Assembly: GCF_030013595.1 (NCBI RefSeq)
Contig: NZ_CP122768.1
Reading direction: 5' to 3' (one strand)
DNA from: Escherichia coli
Lineage (GTDB): Bacteria > Pseudomonadota > Gammaproteobacteria > Enterobacterales > Enterobacteriaceae
Length of the DNA stretch: 64,000 nucleotides
Made by a program: the position numbers and the translations under genes. How positions within the stretch are numbered: the first letter of the stretch is position 1; every line of letters starts with the position of its first letter. The notes below the pieces were generated by a model. That model was given only the letters and a program-made list of their open reading frames with translations. It had not been told where the DNA came from and made no database searches. Below, in pieces: positions 4,499 through 40,933 of this stretch.

Positions 4499-5167
4499 AT
4501 GGTGAAATTAATGAAAAAAAACACAGATGATGGGGCTAAAATTTACACACCACTTACCCTAAAGCTTTATGACTGGTGGGTTTTGGGAGTATCAAATCGG
4601 CTTGCATGGGGATGTCCTACAAAGGAACACCTTCTTCCACACTTTCTGGAACATTTAGGTAACAACCATCTGGATATTGGTGTTGGAACTGGGTTTTACC
4701 TTACTCACGTACCTGAGAGTAGTCTGATATCTTTAATGGATTTGAACGAAGCTAGCCTGAACGCGGCATCTACAAGGGCTGGGGAATCAAAAATTAAACA
4801 TAAAATTAGCCATGATGTTTTTGAACCTTATCCCGCGGCGTTACATGGTCAATTTGATTCCATTTCCATGTTTTACCTTCTTCACTGCCTGCCTGGAAAT
4901 ATATCTACAAAAAGCTGTGTAATACGCAATGCGGCGCAGGCCTTAACTGACGATGGAACTCTATACGGAGCCACAATTCTTGGCGATGGAGTTGTGCACA
5001 ATAGCTTCGGTCAAAAACTGATGCGCATTTACAATCAGAAAGGCATCTTTTCAAACACAAAAGATTCCGAAGAAGGCTTAACACATATACTCTCAGAGCA
5101 TTTCGAGAATGTTAAAACCAAGGTTCAAGGTACTGTAGTAATGTTTTCCGCTTCAGGGAAAAAATAG
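4499..5167 (+). CDS. Class I SAM-dependent methyltransferase (YbcY-like)
   Basis: 222-aa ORF with the glycine-rich SAM-binding motif DIGVGTG; same position as ybcY between tfa copies in DLP12. Confidence 0.7.
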   Translation: MVKLMKKNTDDGAKIYTPLTLKLYDWWVLGVSNRLAWGCPTKEHLLPHFLEHLGNNHLDIGVGTGFYLTHVPESSLISLMDLNEASLNAASTRAGESKIKHKISHDVFEPYPAALHGQFDSISMFYLLHCLPGNISTKSCVIRNAAQALTDDGTLYGATILGDGVVHNSFGQKLMRIYNQKGIFSNTKDSEEGLTHILSEHFENVKTKVQGTVVMFSASGKK

Positions 5168-5806: not shown

Positions 5807-8800
5807 TATGCAAGCCTCACAATATAGTTAAATGCGATGTTTTTGACGGTGTTTTCCGCGTTACCAGCAGCGTTAACGGTGATGGTGTGTCCATGTGAGC
5901 CAATCGCAACCGAGTGCGTATGAGCACCAATACCGACAGTATGTGCGTGTGCACCTGCGCTTGCAGCAGTGCCGGACAGTGAGTGGGTATGTGCGCCAGC
6001 AGATGATGTTGCATAGTTTTGATTATGCACAACAGACAATCTTGTTGATGCACTACCAGCACCGGAGTTAGCACTAGCCGTGTTCACGTTGGCTAGTGAG
6101 TGTGTGTGTGCTCCAGCCGAGTTTGTAGAGCCGCTCACACTGTGTGTATGTGCCCCGGTGTTATTCGTAGATTTAGTGCCGTAATCAAACGACGATGTGG
6201 TTTTCGTACCCAAATCCGTACTTGATGCGCTGGCGCTGTGGGTGTGCGATTTAATGCCGTCCTGTTCCTGAGACAATACGGCACGACCACTGGCGGGCTT
6301 GCCCTTAATCGTCCAGCCACGCATATCAGGGATCACGCCTGACGGATAAGCAACTGCAAGTTTCGGGTATGCAGATTTGTCAAAAGTCTGCCCCTGCATC
6401 AGGGCATAACCAGACGGAACGGTATCTGATGGCCACGGAATTGGTGCGCCAACTGGGTAGCTTTCTGGTGGAAGATTTTTCGAGGTATAAACTTCTGCCC
6501 AGCCTTCCTCAAAACCATAGCCATCTCTTGAGGAACGGTAGAACAGACCTCCATTTCTGTAATGCGCCTTCATCTGCAGGGTCCGGCAACTTCCGACTCC
6601 GGTATAGAAGTTAACCAGAATATAGCTGTCGCCAGAGCGGGTGACATTGTAAGCGCCTGATTCGGCATTCCAGGGAACGCCACCATCCGCATCGGCATAT
6701 GTATCCGTTGCCCTTCTGGCAAAAGCAGCCACATGCGCGGCGGTTAAAGTAATATCTTTTGAACCATCAAACTCAACCCCAGAAACCAGTCTTGGCGTTT
6801 GCAGCTTTGTTGCTGTCAATGCGTTACCGTTCAGACTTGCAGACAGTTTGGTTCCAATAACCAGTTCGCCGGTTGCGTTATCAATAGCAAACGGTCTTAA
6901 TGTATTCCAGCCACCATAAACATCACCTTGATTGGTAAGCAGCAGGTAAGTTTTAGCGCCATCATTACGCCATAATGCCCCATACTCCCCACCTATCATT
7001 CGAATCTGATTACCACCACGCGCTACAATTTCGTCTGTGGCAAAAAGTTTTTTGCACGACAAGTTATCGTTAACGATTAACGAATGGGACTCATAAAAAC
7101 CACGCCCACTCTTAAAATCAAGGATAACGTCCGCCGCGATACATTCAGTCGCTGGAATTGTTGCCCCAAACTTATAGGTCGTATCATTAACAACGAGATC
7201 AGCACCAGGTGCGGATATTGACAGGCCATCTTCGATAAACGCAAAAACAGGGAAAGCAGCGCCATCAACATAGAACACAGAGCGCAAATCATCGCCCTTA
7301 TTACTCATCATTATTGAGTGGATGGCTCGTTCATTGTTTTGATATTGCCAGAACATTCCATAAGCATAACGCCCCCTGTCAGTCCAGCCACCAGGCATAA
7401 CAAATCCGTTAAACTCGCAGTTATTCATCGGATCGCCTGCGGTTCGCGTTGCCGTGGTGATAATGACCCTTGATGCCAGTTCGCTTACTGAGCCAGCAGA
7501 ACGCATAACAACAACAGGGTAATATTTTCCAGATGTTGCACCTGCAGGAGCGTTAACCCGCACATAACGCATACCACGCTTATCAGCAAAGTCTGTTTTA
7601 CTGACCGCGTTAATGTTGTTCAGGAAGCGTCCCTTATCGGGTATATCAGCGCCGTTCTGGTCTTTCTGCAGACGTTTCTCTGCATTGTCATAGGCTGATT
7701 TTACTGACTTTGGCGTTGCCGCCAGCGTTTCAGACGTACTGTTGGTCGCACTGCTGAGCTGTACTATCCCCTTTTTCGTCGTACTTGCATCCTCAAGCGC
7801 CACGGCGGATGCAATATCCTCTGCCCGTTTAGCTGCTGTCTCGGCGCGCGTTGCCGCGGATTCCGCCGTACTTTTGCTCTGTGCTGCCGCTGTCGCACTG
7901 CCAGCAGCCTCTGTCGCCTTCGTGGATGCCGTCGTGGCGCTGCCCTTCGCTGCTGACGCCTGTCTGGTCGCCTCATCTTTTGAAGCAGACGCAGATGATG
8001 CCGATGACGCCGCCGAACTGGCGGACGATGCCGCTGCCGTTTTTGAGGATTCTGCGCTGGTTTCCGACGCTTTCGCGTTCGTTTCGGATGTCTTCGCTGC
8101 GGATGCAGACCTCGCTGCTGCGCTGGCCTGTTCAGCGGCTTCGCCAGCCTTCGTTGTGGCTGTTGAAGCGGACAATGCAGCGCTTTCTGCCGATTTTCCG
8201 GCGGCGGTGGCACTGGCTGAGGCCTGCCCGGCACTTGTTGACGCTGCACTGGCAGACGACGCAGCCGCTGTTTTTGAGCCTGCCGCAGCTGAGGCGCTCT
8301 GTCCCGCTGCCGTTTCAGAAGACCTGGCGTTCGTCTCGGACGTTTTTGCCGCCTTCGCGGAATTTCCTGCCGCCGTTGCCGAGGAAGCTGCACTACTGGC
8401 GCTCGAGGCTGCGCTCGTTTCTGATGATTTTGCAGCCTCTTTTGAGGCCGCCGCATCCCGGGCCGAGGTCGCAGCTTCTGATGCCTTCGTGGTCGCGGTG
8501 GATGCAGATGTGGCTGCTGATTGTTGTGACGCTGAAGCATTCGTTTCTGACGTTTTCGCCGCACCGGCACTGGTGGCCGCCGCGCTTTTTGAGGACTCTG
8601 CAGCGGCAGCACTTTTTGATGCTTCAGTGGCCTTTGTTGATGCCGTTCCTGCGCTGGAAGACGCTGACTGAGCCGACGAAGCGGCCTGTCCGGCTGACGT
8701 GCTGGCTGCGCGTGCTGAGCCTGCAGCATCAGTCGCATGGGTTGCCGCCTCACGGGCAGATGTGCCGGCATCGCCGGCTGACTTCTTCGCGGCTGCCGTG

Positions 8801-18342: not shown

Positions 18343-18769
18343 ACCGGACTCCTCCTGCGATCCCTTCTGATACTGTCATCAGCATTACGTCATCCTCCGT
18401 CATGTCCGCCACATCCGGGGAAACGGGGATAACTTCATTCACGTCCGGGCCAAAGCGGACGCCTCCGGCAAGCCCTGCCGCTTTCTGCATCAGCACATCA
18501 TCTTCAGGCTCTTCGTCAGCCTCACGCCGGTTCAGCAGACTGAAATCCAGCGGATGCATATCCGGATCGCTGAAAAACAGGCTGAGCACGGTGTACGTCA
18601 GCCCGGAAAAGTGCATATCCAGCAGAACATCATGAAAATAATGGGTACTGTAAAAGCGGTGCCAGTCGGCATACTCCGTGGATGACATCCCGGCAAGCAT
18701 GGCACGCCAGTCGGGTCGCCCCATCTCGCGCGCCAGTTTCAGGGCAAAGCTCAGCTCACCGTCGAACAC
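18335..18769 (-). CDS. T: Tail assembly chaperone T (expressed as G-T fusion by -1 frameshift)
   Basis: 144-aa ORF in the -1 frame overlapping the 3' end of G; slippery heptamer GGGAAAG on the minus strand at 18769-18775. Confidence 0.8.
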   Translation of the reverse strand: MFDGELSFALKLAREMGRPDWRAMLAGMSSTEYADWHRFYSTHYFHDVLLDMHFSGLTYTVLSLFFSDPDMHPLDFSLLNRREADEEPEDDVLMQKAAGLAGGVRFGPDVNEVIPVSPDVADMTEDDVMLMTVSEGIAGGVRYG

Positions 18770-34000: not shown

Positions 34001-34384
34001 TTAATTAGAGTTATTAACAACGATATCCATCTCTAACCGGATATCTAATGCCATTAACATCCCTTCAATTATGCCCTCAGCCTTCTGTAACCTTTTCCCG
34101 ATATAACCATCAGAGCAGCAATGCTTACCTGCCAGTGACATGAATGTCATACCGACTACATAATAATCTACTAATAAATCGTGCAAATCGCTGTTGTTCT
34201 TTTTCAGACGGGCCATGCACCCGCAAATAATCATCGCGTCATCGTCACAACATTGCGGGCGAGATTTTACTTTTGAAGGAATTAATCCCTTAAAACCGGC
34301 GGCAATGGACGACCAGGTCACATCTTCATGATTATTAGCCGCCCACGCTCCCCAACGTTCAAGAACCATCTGAATATCACGCAT
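34001..34384 (-). CDS. Late antiterminator Q (phage-21 / DLP12 QuuD type)
   Basis: 127 aa from [18 protein letters not shown]; Cys-rich Q-like sequence. Confidence 0.85.
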
Positions 34385-34401
34385 TAACTTTCTCCACAAA
34401 A

Positions 34402-35397
34402 TCAGGCCAGCACACCAATCGCCAGTGCGCGATCGATAAAACGAAATATCAGCTCCAGCTGGGAGCCATACTTCTCTTCAAATGCCACGGTATCCGCATG
34501 CAGTTCGTCGTGGTGTTTTCTGCACAAAGGCAACACAAAAAGGTCATGCGCTTTTGTACCCATTCCACCCTGACCATGGCCTATCAGATGATGCGGATCA
34601 TCAGCTGGCTTTCCACAACATGCACACGGCTGTGTCTTAACCCAGCGCGTGTACTTTTCATTAACCCAGCGGCGACGTTTTGGGCGTAACATAAAAGACT
34701 CCGGCGACTCCGGATCCACTTTCAGCGCCAGCACCTTTTTCGCCTTATCCTGGATGATGCTGGTGGCAGGAACCGAAGGCACAAGGTCACTTTCCCGGGT
34801 AACAGACGGCACAACAGGCTTCGGTAATCTCAGTGCCTTACGGGCTGCACTTTCCGGTAAGGCATCCGCCAGATCATTACGAATCAGCCACCAGCACAGT
34901 TCCGGCATTGTCACAACGTGACTGTCATCAAAACCGAGATCCCGACGCACAACAGACAACACCCAGCGGGCACAGTTATCCGTTGCCATTGATTCCAGCC
35001 GTTCCGTGAACTGATCGCGCAGCTGGTTATCGCAGTGCCAGCACAGACGGATTGCACCCGGAGCGTGTCGCATTGTGGTCATGTTCTCGCTGTGCCAGTC
35101 GGAATGAGGCCACTGGCAGCCTTTTTCACGAAGTAACCAGCTTTCAAGACATTCCACGCCACCAGCACGACGGATCACTGCCTCATTGCGGAACACGGCC
35201 CGAACGGCAGGATCATCCGCCAGCGGTTGTGATGCCGCCGGAACGGCACCACTGGCGAAAGATGAATAACGCTCCGGCTCAGGCTCCAGCAGGACACGCC
35301 CCTGCATAAACAGGGGCATCAGCTCTGAACCTGGCCTGAACAATACGATCCCCATACGCGGGGCAATTTCAGGGGTCAGTAGTGCTCTCACGGTCAC
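34402..35397 (-). CDS. DUF968 / NinG-like protein with HNH-type Cys-His motif
   Basis: C-terminal [25 protein letters not shown] motif; GTG start at 35397 (alternative ATG further in). Confidence 0.65.
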
Positions 35398-35398
35398 C

Positions 35399-36208
35399 TC
35401 AATGAACGGTATCGAGCAGCTTTAACAGCTCAGGGAATCGGGATTCGAAGAAATGCGGCTGTGTCTCGCGCGGATTTGCGGGACTGGTGATGTTCTTGCC
35501 GAACATGCAACCTTTCGCTGTCAGCGACCAGAATTTTTTGATGTTGTTAATCGCTGTACGGCTGTATCGTTCGCGCTGCTCGACGATCCCCAGTTTCACC
35601 ATCTGGTGATATGCCTGATTAGCCGTCAGGCGTATACCATACTGTTTCAGCAGTGCACTCAGTGACAGTGTCGGGCGACTTGAGCCATCGTGTGCATCAG
35701 CAGGAGCATCAATGGCATAGCGCGGTGCCAGATTCGGTAAGCCAACAGCCTCCTGGAGTTTCTGACAGGCACCAAGCACTGAAGAGTTAGACAGGTTTAA
35801 CTCCCGGCGCATAAAGTCCAGCAGGATCACGCCAGCCTGCATCTTGTCAGCAGCCTGTCCGGATAATTTTTCCGGTGCGCTGGTTACCATATCGAAAGTA
35901 CGGATCACCTTCAGATGGAATGACGGGCTGATCCACATTGCATAGGCATACACCAGTTCCTTGCAGACATACGTTCCCCGTTCATTTCCCCCATGAATCA
36001 CACTCACCGGGTCAACACCCAAATTCTGGGTGTTGGTCAATTCATGAACAAGCTCAACAGTTTGTTGGCTGGAAAGAAACTTTCCCGGCTCCTTGGTTCT
36101 GGCATTTGCACCAGATGCTACTGCTGCGCGATGCAGATCGTTCAGGCTGTAACGCCCATAAGCATCACGACGAACTTCAATACCATCAATGACCATCAGA
36201 TTATTCAT
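35399..36208 (-). CDS. KilA-N domain protein (antirepressor-like)
   Basis: N-terminal KilA-N-like region (MNNLMVIDGIEVRRDAYGRYSLNDLHRAA). Confidence 0.7.
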   Translation of the reverse strand: MNNLMVIDGIEVRRDAYGRYSLNDLHRAAVASGANARTKEPGKFLSSQQTVELVHELTNTQNLGVDPVSVIHGGNERGTYVCKELVYAYAMWISPSFHLKVIRTFDMVTSAPEKLSGQAADKMQAGVILLDFMRRELNLSNSSVLGACQKLQEAVGLPNLAPRYAIDAPADAHDGSSRPTLSLSALLKQYGIRLTANQAYHQMVKLGIVEQRERYSRTAINNIKKFWSLTAKGCMFGKNITSPANPRETQPHFFESRFPELLKLLDTVH

Positions 36209-36227
36209 ACTTCGTTTCTCCTCTTGA

Positions 36228-36617
36228 TCAGGCGGCTGCACCCGCCGTTTTCTCGTACTTACTGATAGTGATCTCGACCTTCCCTTTCGGGATAACCGGT
36301 CCCCACTCCACCAGCATTCTTTTCACCTGACTGTCGTCTTCCCACACACCCGCATGGGTCAGGGCGTCAAACAGCGCCTTGTTATAGTTGTCCAGATCGC
36401 GGATCCGGTTATCCGGAGGAAACAACACGATCTCCACTGAAGCAGGTGCCGACGTTGGTTTCGGCAGACGACGTAACTGCTCAACTATTGCTGCGCACGC
36501 CGCGCTCTGGAATTTGCGCCCCGCTGCGCTTATCAGACTCTTACCAGCAAACGCCCCTTTGTTGGGGTGTCGCCAGTACGTGTTCACGCTGGGCGGGAAA
36601 GGCAAGATCAGCTTCAT
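36228..36617 (-). CDS. rusA: Holliday junction resolvase RusA
   Basis: 129 aa, RusA-like sequence with conserved acidic residues. Confidence 0.85.
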   Translation of the reverse strand: MKLILPFPPSVNTYWRHPNKGAFAGKSLISAAGRKFQSAACAAIVEQLRRLPKPTSAPASVEIVLFPPDNRIRDLDNYNKALFDALTHAGVWEDDSQVKRMLVEWGPVIPKGKVEITISKYEKTAGAAA

Positions 36618-36940
36618 ACTTTCAGGCCCCTCTCATGTAACCAGTGGGCTGCACGCAGCCTGGCGTTTTCCTCACCGGCAAGCAGTGCGCGGATAATCCC
36701 GACCGCCTCGCTGTCGTCGTCCTTCACCGCGGTATGAAGAGTTATCCCCCGGGCCACGCCACGCTTTATCGTGATGACGCCTTTTTTCTCCAGTGCGCGA
36801 AGATGCTCCACCGCTGCATTCACCGAACGGTATCCCAGCATGGTTGCCACCTCCTGATTGGTTGGCGGAAAGCCACGTTCTTGCTGGTAAGAAATCAGCA
36901 TATCCAGCACCTGCTGCTGGCATTGAGTTAACGTCGTCAT
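36614..36940 (-). CDS. LexA N-terminal DNA-binding-domain-like protein (no peptidase domain)
   Basis: 108 aa; resembles the LexA winged-HTH domain (QQQVLDMLISYQQERGFPPTNQEVATMLGYRSVNAAVEHLRALEKKGVI). Confidence 0.6.
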   Translation of the reverse strand: MTTLTQCQQQVLDMLISYQQERGFPPTNQEVATMLGYRSVNAAVEHLRALEKKGVITIKRGVARGITLHTAVKDDDSEAVGIIRALLAGEENARLRAAHWLHERGLKV

Positions 36941-37590
36941 GCCGCCATCTCCCTGACCAGTTTTTCCGCCTGCTGGCGAACCTGCGCCAGAAAGGCCTCA
37001 CCACATGCCTCAAGTTCATCGCGCCCGATGTAGCTGATTGCCGGTCCCTTCCAGGTCTTGTCGAAAACAGCAATAGCACCAGCGAAGAAAGCGCCTGTCG
37101 GCACCTGCTTCTCGTCCTTCGGGATAAACCAGGCTGGCAGTTCAAAACCAATACGCCCGCGAATAAAAGCAATATGGTCTGCATCTTCCGGCCACCACAC
37201 TTCGCTGGTGGCAGCTTTGATCAGGAAAACATAGCGCCCGCCTTTATCACGCATGGCACTGGCATGCTTCATGATGTAACGCATGCCGGTGATGTATTGC
37301 CCCTCATGCTGACTGGCGCGGCTGTACGGGGGATTACCAAAGGCAGCACCTTTAAGCTCCGCAAGACGTTCTGACCAGTCATGCGCCAGCGCGTTGTCTT
37401 CCGCAGTGTAATACGCGGCGCATTTGGCGTTATCACCATCAGTAAACAGATCCAGAACAAACGGGCCAAACAGGGTGTTAATTCCCCAGAAAATGTTGTC
37501 CGGCGTGCGCCACTGATCGCCCACTTCCTTCAGTTCATGGGCTGGTTTGTTCCGCAGCTCCACCAGCGCCTGGCAATATTTATTACTCAT
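36937..37590 (-). CDS. Phage N6-adenine DNA methyltransferase (Dam-like)
   Basis: 217 aa from MSNKYCQ; phage Dam-family features (NPPY motif); no adjacent restriction gene. Confidence 0.7.
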   Translation of the reverse strand: MSNKYCQALVELRNKPAHELKEVGDQWRTPDNIFWGINTLFGPFVLDLFTDGDNAKCAAYYTAEDNALAHDWSERLAELKGAAFGNPPYSRASQHEGQYITGMRYIMKHASAMRDKGGRYVFLIKAATSEVWWPEDADHIAFIRGRIGFELPAWFIPKDEKQVPTGAFFAGAIAVFDKTWKGPAISYIGRDELEACGEAFLAQVRQQAEKLVREMAA

Positions 37591-38078
37591 TAAGCCCCCA
37601 CGTAATTCCCTGACAGATACCACTCTTCACCCGATGCAGCGCGCTTGCTGCTTTTCCGTAAACACCGCTCACGACGCGCAAGAAAATTGTTTCGCTCTTG
37701 CTGGGAGTGGCTTTCACGGAATGCCGCCATCCACACCGTTGCAGCACGACGGTATAAGCCCCTGGACTCCAGTTCTTCCGCCTGGCGGGTCAGGCACAAA
37801 ATAACCCGGGGATCGTTAGTGCCGACATAGAAATTGCGCACAGGTCTGGATTCACGAACTGGTTGCGGTTCCGGCTCCTGCGGTATCTCAGTCAGCCGCG
37901 GGAAATGTCTGCGTGTATCCCCTTCACAACGGTGAGCCACACGCCCACTCTGACGTAACTTGCTTGCTGACTGCAGAACGCGCTGTCGTGAGTAACCTGC
38001 AAAAGCATCCGCAATGTCTCCGGAAGTACACCCCGGATGGGCTTCAATGAATTTCTGAACGTCATTCAAAAGACTCAT
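37590..38078 (-). CDS. Hypothetical nin-region protein
   Basis: 162 aa from ATG at 38078; directly follows the replication initiator; no Walker motif. Confidence 0.5.
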   Translation of the reverse strand: MSLLNDVQKFIEAHPGCTSGDIADAFAGYSRQRVLQSASKLRQSGRVAHRCEGDTRRHFPRLTEIPQEPEPQPVRESRPVRNFYVGTNDPRVILCLTRQAEELESRGLYRRAATVWMAAFRESHSQQERNNFLARRERCLRKSSKRAASGEEWYLSGNYVGA

Positions 38079-38080
38079 GA

Positions 38081-39022
38081 TCACCCCCTGAATCCTGCCG
38101 GGATCTGGCTGTAGTCCACGTTGTCGTAACTGGCTTTGAAGTACGGGTCTTCGCGTTTTTCGGTGTACGTGCTGACGGACGGCGATAAGCGCAGGGAAAG
38201 CTCATCCCATTTTTCCCGCAGCTTCGACGGGCTGAGCACGTTACGGCACCAGAACGGATCGCGACTGACGCGGCTGTACATCTCGCAGATTTGTTTATGA
38301 GTACGACCATCCTGCACACACATCAGGCGAATTTCGTTTGCCCAGGCTGTCCAGTTCGGTTCTTTGGGACGAACCACCTCGCCGTCACATTCGGCGGCAT
38401 GCTCGTACAGGGCGATGATTTTTTTCCAGAGCCACTGTGCGCAGGTCAAATCATCCTGCGTCCCCCACTGGCGCTTTTTAGGGCTGAATACAACCGCATC
38501 AGGATGGCGAGTTAAAAAATCCTGTTCAGCCGTCTGCGTGTCCGGTTGCGAAGAGTCCGGACGAGAAGGTTTTTTATCTGACGGATCATGTTTTGATTTT
38601 ACTGACGGATCCCCGCCAGATTCTGACGGGTGAAAACCCGCTTTTTTGCCAGATTTCGACGCATCAAATTTTGACGGGTCAGATTTTGATGCGTCAGATT
38701 TTGACGGGTCAGAATCTGACAGTTGAGAAAATGCCGCTGCCTGAAGCTTCGCAACGTTAAGCTGATAAACATTCGACGCATTGCGGTTACCCTGGCGACG
38801 CGCCTTACGCGTTAACCAGCCTTCTGCTTCCAGCCGTGCGATAGCCGTTCTGACGGTACTCATCCCCGCGCCAATCTGGCGGGCAATGGTTTCAATCGAT
38901 GGCCAGCACACACCTTCGTCATTACTGAAATCAGCCAGGCGGGCCATAATTGCCACGCTGGATAATTTCATGCCTGACGCTGCGCAACCATCCCATACAT
39001 AGCCGGTTAATTTAGTGCTCAT
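38081..39022 (-). CDS. Replication initiator protein (O-like)
   Basis: 313 aa; N-terminal HTH; repeat-encoded linker (DPSKSDASKSDPSKFDASKS) spanning the iterons. Confidence 0.75.
   Translation of the reverse strand: MSTKLTGYVWDGCAASGMKLSSVAIMARLADFSNDEGVCWPSIETIARQIGAGMSTVRTAIARLEAEGWLTRKARRQGNRNASNVYQLNVAKLQAAAFSQLSDSDPSKSDASKSDPSKFDASKSGKKAGFHPSESGGDPSVKSKHDPSDKKPSRPDSSQPDTQTAEQDFLTRHPDAVVFSPKKRQWGTQDDLTCAQWLWKKIIALYEHAAECDGEVVRPKEPNWTAWANEIRLMCVQDGRTHKQICEMYSRVSRDPFWCRNVLSPSKLREKWDELSLRLSPSVSTYTEKREDPYFKASYDNVDYSQIPAGFRG
38575..38725. repeat. Replication origin iterons inside the initiator gene
   Basis: Tandem and inverted copies of ATTTTGACGGGTCAGA / ATTTTGATGCGTCAGA. Confidence 0.7.
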
Positions 39023-40258: not shown

Positions 40259-40933
40259 ATGAAAACAATCCATGACATCCGGCGGTCTAACGCCCGAAAA
40301 CTGAGAGATGGTGTTGGAGGGAATTCTTCCTTTGCCACTATGATTGATCGCGAGCCAACCCAGACCAGCAGGTTTATGGGAGATGGTGCTACTAAAAATA
40401 TCGGTGACAGCATGGCACGACACATCGAAAAATGTTTCGACCTGCCTGTCGGATGGCTCGATCAAGAACACCAGACAACGAACATCACAAAAAAACCTGA
40501 TGTTTCAATCACTAATAAACAAATCACATTAGTCCCTGTCATATCATGGGTACAGGCCGGAGCATGGAAAGAAGTTGGATATTCTGAGGTTGATTTGAGC
40601 ACAGCAGAAACGTATCCCTGCCCTGTACCCTGTGGGGAAATGACTTATATCTTGCGGGTGATAGGTGATTCAATGATTGATGAGTACCGCCCGGGAGACA
40701 TGATTTTTGTCGATCCTGAAGTACCTGCCTGCCACGGTGACGACGTTATTGCATTGATGCACGATACAGGTGAAACCACCTTCAAAAGGTTGATAGAAGA
40801 TGGGACACAGCGTTATCTCAAAGCGTTAAACCCAAACTGGCCTGAGCCTTACATTAAGATCAACGGTAATTGCTCTATAATTGGAACTGTGATTTTCTCA
40901 GGAAAACCAAGAAGATACAAAATCAAAGCCTAA
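40259..40933 (+). CDS. cI: CI-like repressor (LexA-like S24 peptidase family, e14 YmfK type)
   Basis: 224 aa; N-terminal HTH and C-terminal S24 autopeptidase domain (VIGDSM Ser motif). Confidence 0.85.
   Translation: MKTIHDIRRSNARKLRDGVGGNSSFATMIDREPTQTSRFMGDGATKNIGDSMARHIEKCFDLPVGWLDQEHQTTNITKKPDVSITNKQITLVPVISWVQAGAWKEVGYSEVDLSTAETYPCPVPCGEMTYILRVIGDSMIDEYRPGDMIFVDPEVPACHGDDVIALMHDTGETTFKRLIEDGTQRYLKALNPNWPEPYIKINGNCSIIGTVIFSGKPRRYKIKA

Follow-up and report, generated by a model that had tools for sequence, protein, structure and literature searches.

Within a lambdoid prophage of Escherichia coli, at positions 36937-37590 on the minus strand of the 64,000-nucleotide stretch analysed here (contig NZ_CP122768.1 of assembly GCF_030013595.1; 'the window' in what follows), lies a gene whose product, judged by its sequence, is a phage N6-adenine DNA methyltransferase of the PF05869/TIGR01712 family. 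The joint reading favoured here, with good though not complete confidence, is that of an intact orphan enzyme expressed with the early operon, with GATC as its probable target and protection of progeny phage DNA as its role. The gene itself is already known: RefSeq annotates it, its family is established and it is very common in prophages.

The sequence-only reading had placed a Dam-like methylase gene at these coordinates, and an open reading frame (ORF) of 654 nucleotides (nt), encoding 217 amino acids (aa) and free of internal stops, is indeed present there, its ATG at 37590-37588 and its TGA at 36939-36937. A longer version of the ORF could start from an in-frame GTG at 37623, but the ATG is favoured because a run of five Gs stands 4 nt before it, and the PGAP/RefSeq annotation of a 99.9% identical genome uses the same start and stop as here. 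The features of the gene that matter for what follows are these:

36937..37590, minus strand: coding sequence of the phage N6-adenine DNA methyltransferase, 217 aa, with the coordinates of RefSeq WP_000066917.1 in the 99.9% identical genome
37595..37599, minus strand: Shine-Dalgarno-like GGGGG, 4 nt 5' of the methylase ATG, in the minus-strand sequence ...ACGTGGGGGCTTAATGAGT...
37450..37518, minus strand: codons for residues 25-47, comprising D25-x-W27-x-T29-P30 and D47, from the alignment and the AlphaFold2 (AF2) model
37324..37335, minus strand: codons of catalytic motif IV of amino-methyltransferases, N86-P87-P88-Y89, from the alignment

The PF05869 profile is matched from position 3 to 167 of its 169 (E=9.7e-46; 156 bits against a cut-off of 28.1), and the equivalog TIGR01712, 'phage N-6-adenine-methyltransferase', over all of its 165 positions (1-165; E=1.5e-76; 255.6 bits against a cut-off of 97.05). 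The PADLOC MTase_II model PDLC03263, a type II methyltransferase model of 217 positions, is likewise matched end to end (E=8.4e-159). The earlier assignment to the Dam family thus stands in the sense that PF05869 is the Pfam family named 'Dam', with the caveat that Dam of E. coli and of T4 belongs to a different family, PF02086. PF05869 was the only Pfam family matched; PF02086 (MethyltransfD12, alpha class) gave no match at E<=0.01, and of the FxGxG of motif I and the target-recognition domain inserted between the AdoMet (S-adenosylmethionine)-binding and catalytic halves, both features of PF02086 enzymes, neither is found in the methylase.

Conservation was assessed in an alignment of the methylase with 23 homologues (24 sequences at 25-83% identity, among them M.EcoVT2Dam of phage VT2-Sakai and T1 Dam), in which D25, W27, T29, D47, N54, P87, P88, Y89, S90, G145 and R146 are invariant. 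The presence of catalytic motifs, which the sequence-only reading had left to an alignment to decide, is borne out by NPPY, with P87, P88, Y89 and S90 in every one of the 24 sequences and N86 in at least 90% of them. The family-specific residues beyond motif IV, namely the DxWxTP, the acidic residue after strand 1 and the GR before the last strands, are all kept. In the AF2 model, whose predicted local distance difference test score (pLDDT) is 93.8, the core is an alternating beta/alpha arrangement of Rossmann type, strand beta-1 being predicted at residues 44-50 with the acidic D47 toward its end. On this confident model the fold is that of a class I AdoMet-dependent methyltransferase, and by analogy with the general architecture of that class D25-x-W27-x-T29-P30 and D47 would take part in AdoMet binding. 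All 217 residues fall in a single modelled domain, with no separate target-recognition domain.

As to the claim that no cognate restriction gene is nearby, annotation shows no restriction endonuclease either in the prophage or in the rest of the window, and no restriction-enzyme model of PADLOC was matched by the six neighbouring proteins. The DUF968 product shows a weak HNH-like match (PF16784, 26.9 bits); DUF968 is a common lambdoid nin-region gene. The adjacent cognate endonuclease by which a type II restriction-modification system is recognised is therefore lacking at the methylase locus, and the enzyme is an orphan.

At 95% nucleotide identity or more the gene occurs in 2119 of 5426 complete E. 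coli genomes, with coverage of at least 80% in 1724 of the 2119 and partial copies only in the other 395. Sequenced phages with the gene number 42, among them Stx2a and Stx2c phages, mEp460 and PhiR phages derived from ECOR strains. It is among the commonest accessory methyltransferase genes of E. coli prophages, those of Shiga toxin (Stx) phages included, and no PF05869 type is commoner in these prophages than the 217-aa subfamily. Phages at large carry the family very widely, tblastn having found 587 phage records of the present subtype and 1908 of the VT2 type. Against the Cronobacter homologue, at 83% amino-acid identity, the ratio of non-synonymous to synonymous substitution rates (dN/dS) is about 0.05, which shows the methylase to be under strong purifying selection. 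A literature search on PF05869, yfdM and M.EcoVT2Dam found no biochemical study of the subfamily, which is without a published target sequence or solved structure, and to our knowledge no specificity has been published for copies of the WP_000066917.1 type; beyond correct annotation, the present significance of the gene is small. In that regard a systematic mislabel is pertinent, as recent phage records annotated by way of PHROGs call the methylase 'phosphoadenosine phosphosulfate reductase'. This arises because phrog_33262, of 495 positions, is built on fusions of phosphoadenosine phosphosulfate (PAPS) reductase with Dam, and the methylase matches its positions 283-492 only.

Associations seen in homologues bear on the nature of the substrate. 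In other genomes the methylase domain is joined in one protein with C5-cytosine DNA methylase domains (proteins P0126, P0128 and P0133) or with a PAPS-reductase-like domain, and in a Cronobacter prophage (L007, 4001-6843) and in phage Eeyore (L005, 3492-6756) the homologue is followed by a C5-cytosine DNA methylase of 645-660 aa, which there separates it from a LexA-like gene or an antirepressor. Fusion and adjacency to C5 DNA methylases point to DNA as the likely substrate, and stacked orphan DNA methylases would fit with protection of phage DNA. Homologues in prophages of the Cronobacter and Eeyore type carry a variable C-terminal extension that brings them to 285-444 aa. The large C5-cytosine DNA methylase has no counterpart in the E. 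coli prophage of the window.

Placement of the gene in a nin region, also proposed at the outset, is upheld: it lies in the nin-equivalent stretch of an early-right operon, in the order replication genes, methylase, antiterminator Q. Read along the minus strand, the genes are a YdaS-type cro-like gene, ymfL, DUF4222, the O-like gene, the PerC-family gene, the methylase, the LexA-like gene, RusA, KilA-N, DUF968 and QuuD, and the surrounding prophage has a complete complement of lambdoid genes for head, tail, lysis and control. The elements of the block, and the repressor gene that diverges from it, are as follows:

40259-40933, plus strand: repressor (ymfK-like, cI-like), divergent, upstream of the block
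34001..39022, minus strand: nin-equivalent block of the early-right operon, from Pfam matches and the RefSeq table of the 99.9% identical locus
38081-39022, minus strand: O-like HTH_36 replication gene
37590..38084, minus strand: PerC-family protein, 164 aa, upstream of the methylase (PF06069, E=2.3e-09; homologue of K-12 yfdN; also in RefSeq)
36614..36940, minus strand: protein consisting of a LexA-type DNA-binding domain only, 108 aa, downstream of the methylase (PF01726, E=2.6e-19 over residues 1-65)
36228-36617, minus strand: RusA
35399-36208, minus strand: KilA-N
34402-35391, minus strand: DUF968/HNH
~34001-34384, minus strand: QuuD antiterminator

The 6.6 kb of DNA around the methylase matches a prophage of E. 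coli STEC2018-553, and those of many other strains, at 99.9% identity; in STEC2018-553 the prophage adjoins tRNA-Arg and intD, that is, the argU/DLP12 site. A promoter scan returned 7 sites against 7.8 expected in shuffled sequence, none of them on the minus strand just 5' of the methylase, and a simple scan of the block at 34001..39022 gave no convincing minus-strand promoter and no strong terminator.

The overlaps of the gene with both of its neighbours, to which the sequence-only reading had drawn attention, are real. Upstream, the PerC-like gene and the methylase ATG share the last A of the TAA stop (TAATG, a 1-nt overlap), and downstream the methylase TGA overlaps the ATG of the LexA-like ORF (ATGA, 4 nt). 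Two further junctions of the block, O-like with PerC-like and LexA-like with RusA, are ATGA as well, so the overlaps are a property of the operon as a whole and not of the methylase gene. Since overlapping start and stop codons are the rule in lambdoid nin regions (PMC8022706), those at the methylase are ordinary packing of such a region, or translational coupling, and have no special meaning. Public databases also hold PerC-methylase fusion proteins of 380 aa (P0004-P0016; P0011, for instance, is on 12 contigs) and, rarely, methylase-LexA-like fusions of 292-324 aa. Both stem from a shift of reading frame close to the overlapping stop and start codons, and may be either natural variants or assembly errors.

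Several other observations on the prophage stand apart from the methylase. The LexA-like protein (36614-36940), which shares 43% identity with E. coli LexA over residues 1-86 of the latter, lacks an S24 peptidase or dimerisation domain; it could be a non-cleavable LexA mimic produced at induction. A search for SOS boxes (CTGTN8ACAG) as its potential target gave one match in the 64 kb, no more than chance. At 4499-5167 on the plus strand, among tail-fibre genes, is a gene for a class I AdoMet-dependent methyltransferase of 222 aa (Methyltransf_12/23/25 matches) which resembles a moron and is unlikely to be a DNA methylase. In STEC2018-553 an IS3-family element of ~1.26 kb (L001, 2831-4088) interrupts the gene for tail assembly protein T; the window has no such insertion, so its own copy is uninterrupted (~18489-18491).

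With regard to function, the course of events most consistent with this setting would begin with a methylase gene kept silent while the prophage repressor is on. From its position in the operon, it would be transcribed on induction or infection together with the replication and nin genes, and the enzyme would then use AdoMet to methylate adenines in replicating phage DNA. Its target would most probably be GATC, by analogy with M.EcoVT2Dam and with T1 and HP1 Dam, the latter two being characterised members of PF05869 that are reported as GATC-specific. The phage enzyme may in this way offset under-methylation of fast-replicating lambdoid DNA by host Dam, and progeny genomes would be shielded from methylation-sensitive restriction in the next host, with epigenetic changes in the expression of phage or host genes as a possible secondary outcome. 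Virion DNA of P22 and lambda is under-methylated by host Dam as replication outruns modification (PMC8022706), which provides a rationale for a phage-borne enzyme even with GATC as its target. The anti-restriction or regulatory role proposed initially is plausible.

Several points weigh against this account. Its GATC target is argued from family analogy, at an identity of 31% to M.EcoVT2Dam (over 144 residues) and 24% to T1 Dam, and the methylase has three segments that those two enzymes do not, a hairpin at ~91-102, a loop at ~150-166 and a C-terminal helix at 190-216, which could change DNA recognition. The prophage shows no depletion or enrichment of GATC compared with its flanks (36 observed in the early region, 37.6 expected), and the frequencies of CTGCAG and CCWGG in the prophage and flanking chromosome likewise do not differ informatively; with GATC frequency so flat, composition is uninformative on specificity. 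The expression timing is deduced from gene position, the promoter scan having stayed at background. As E. coli has its own Dam, a second GATC enzyme would bring no evident advantage in a dam+ host beyond faster methylation.

Some of these same points feed the alternative that the enzyme has a non-GATC or relaxed specificity, whether as a broad anti-restriction methylase in the manner of Hia5 and M.EcoGII or as part of a multi-methylase protection module, which is best regarded as a tentative possibility. The low identity to GATC-specific relatives, the insertions specific to the subfamily and the single domain without a separate target-recognition domain are all in keeping with it, and the fusion or adjacency of close relatives to large C5 DNA methylases suggests stacked protective modification. 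The presumed GATC specificity of T1 and HP1 Dam goes the other way. Non-specific phage adenine methylases do exist, but in other families (PMC3299994; PMC7556043): those known are of the D12/alpha class, as is Hia5, or of further families, and are not PF05869 members. Hia5, Hin1523 and Nme1821, all non-specific, were rejected as kin, their class being D12/alpha with DPPY and FxGxG. For M.EcoVT2Dam, a characterised PF05869 member, the specificity is given as GATC (PMC6602927, Table 3). That the enzyme is no simple GATC 'Dam mimic', with the hairpin at 91-102, the loop at 150-166 and the C-terminal helix conferring a new or relaxed specificity, or with the methylase forming, together with the coupled PerC-like and LexA-domain proteins, a methylation switch that affects induction or SOS, is quite unlikely. 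Regulation also figures in the idea that the prophage expresses the methylase in the lysogen and so alters host or prophage expression, or the frequency of induction, through DNA methylation. The two putative transcription factors that flank the methylase, PerC-like on one side and a LexA DNA-binding domain alone on the other, lend this some appeal, as does the effect of another prophage-borne methyltransferase on the induction of Stx prophage (PMC10810198). However, no independent promoter was detected, the overlapping early-right genes should be repressed in the lysogen, and with GATC as the target the sites would already be saturated by host Dam, so that a lysogen regulator is an unlikely description of the enzyme.

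It is highly unlikely that the substrate is instead RNA, for instance rRNA, with the neighbouring winged-helix protein as a targeting subunit that the enzyme needs, after the fashion of the MT-A70-type M.EcoPA8orf6770P-PNB-2 of Stx phages. Precedent exists in that the Stx-phage enzyme M.EcoGV/M.EcoPA8orf6770P methylates 16S rRNA with a partner protein (PMC10810198), and translational coupling to a small winged-helix (LexA-type) protein, together with the lack of a recognisable target-recognition domain, would be in line with it. The best structural match of the methylase in Foldseek is moreover PCIF1, an RNA cap m6Am methyltransferase, but the match is weak (template modelling score ~0.45, 10-13% identity) and DNA methylases score nearly equally; METTL3/14 and METTL4 are poor matches (probabilities 0.05-0.18), and sequence searches of the PDB with the methylase alone and with the 24-sequence profile gave nothing significant. 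The family differs too, as the methylase has NPPY and belongs to PF05869, where MT-A70 enzymes have DPPW, and Pfam returned no match of the methylase to MT-A70 (PF05063). Neither is adjacency to a LexA-like gene constant: a C5 methylase intervenes in Cronobacter, the LexA-like gene is absent beside the Eeyore homologue, and none is annotated by the homologues in the Chi-like phage ST-118, where the neighbours are hypothetical proteins only, or in VT2-Sakai. With the neighbourhood so variable in relatives, the LexA-like protein was rejected as an obligate partner. The domain fusions that concern methylases are to those of DNA, and M.EcoVT2Dam, when cloned without a partner, reportedly methylated GATC (Radlinska and Bujnicki 2001, cited in PMC7556043). 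Lastly, that the gene belongs to a decaying, non-functional prophage remnant is barely credible. Occupation of the site of the cryptic prophage DLP12, the truncated K-12 copy yfdM in CPS-53 and the several hundred genomes with partial copies only could be cited for it, but the frame is full-length with every invariant residue kept, the dN/dS is that of a gene under constraint, copies that are identical or at least 98% identical are carried by inducible, sequenced phages (PhiR29_1, mEp460 and Stx2 phages), and the prophage around the methylase retains its full head, tail, lysis and regulatory gene set.

Among known systems, the E. coli Dam, T4 Dam and DpnM enzymes (PF02086, D12/alpha) have no sequence match to the methylase, and ~110 residues superpose at 9-13% identity. 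The 'DNA adenine methyltransferase' M.EcoGV/M.EcoPA8orf6770P of Shiga toxin-producing E. coli is likewise prophage-borne and has small nucleic-acid-binding proteins adjacent to it (PMC10810198), but with DPPW and membership of MT-A70 it has no family-level relation to the methylase, and, being also at another locus, was rejected as its counterpart. M.EcoGIX, which is plasmid-borne, specific for single-stranded DNA and unrelated, was rejected as a lead, and PhiOS31_p25 and phiP27 L24 were not used in considering relaxed specificity; the phiP27 gene is of 352 aa and positioned after Q.

Within PF05869 the likenesses are closer. T1 Dam (237 aa), annotated as similar to HP2 Dam, has the conserved motifs of the methylase and differs in a long N-terminal extension, in an insertion before the GR motif and in that T1 is virulent; the Dam enzymes of T1 and HP1/HP2 are, like the methylase of the window, phage-borne orphans. 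M.EcoVT2Dam (VT2-Sakai orf32, 175 aa; PF05869, E=6.4e-65) shares NPPY, DxWxTP and GR, is also an orphan, and is encoded by a lambdoid nin-region gene that lies between ninB and ninE and has overlapping codons. It has different neighbours and is 42 residues shorter, the hairpin at 91-102 and the long C-terminal helix being absent and the 150-166 loop present only in part. The same protein as that of the window is WP_000066917.1, 'phage N-6-adenine-methyltransferase', which occurs in E. coli prophages and in the phages PhiR29_1, PhiR40_1 (where it is 100% identical), mEp460, Stx2a_1447 and Stx2c phages. Several phages and genomes have the gene at 99.8-100% nucleotide identity, and its neighbours are the same, PerC-like 5' and LexA-like 3'. 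In K-12 the cryptic prophage CPS-53 is homologous to the window from 37324 to 38789 at 97.7% DNA identity, yfdN being the PerC-like neighbour and yfdM (b2356) lying at 8113-8388 of locus L004. According to a preprint, the T1-like phage SW1 propagates with the help of yfdM or requires it (bioRxiv 10.1101/413146). YfdM is 100% identical to residues 1-89 of the methylase and is truncated right after NPPY, so that it lacks the C-terminal half of the fold, whereas the gene in the window is the intact form.
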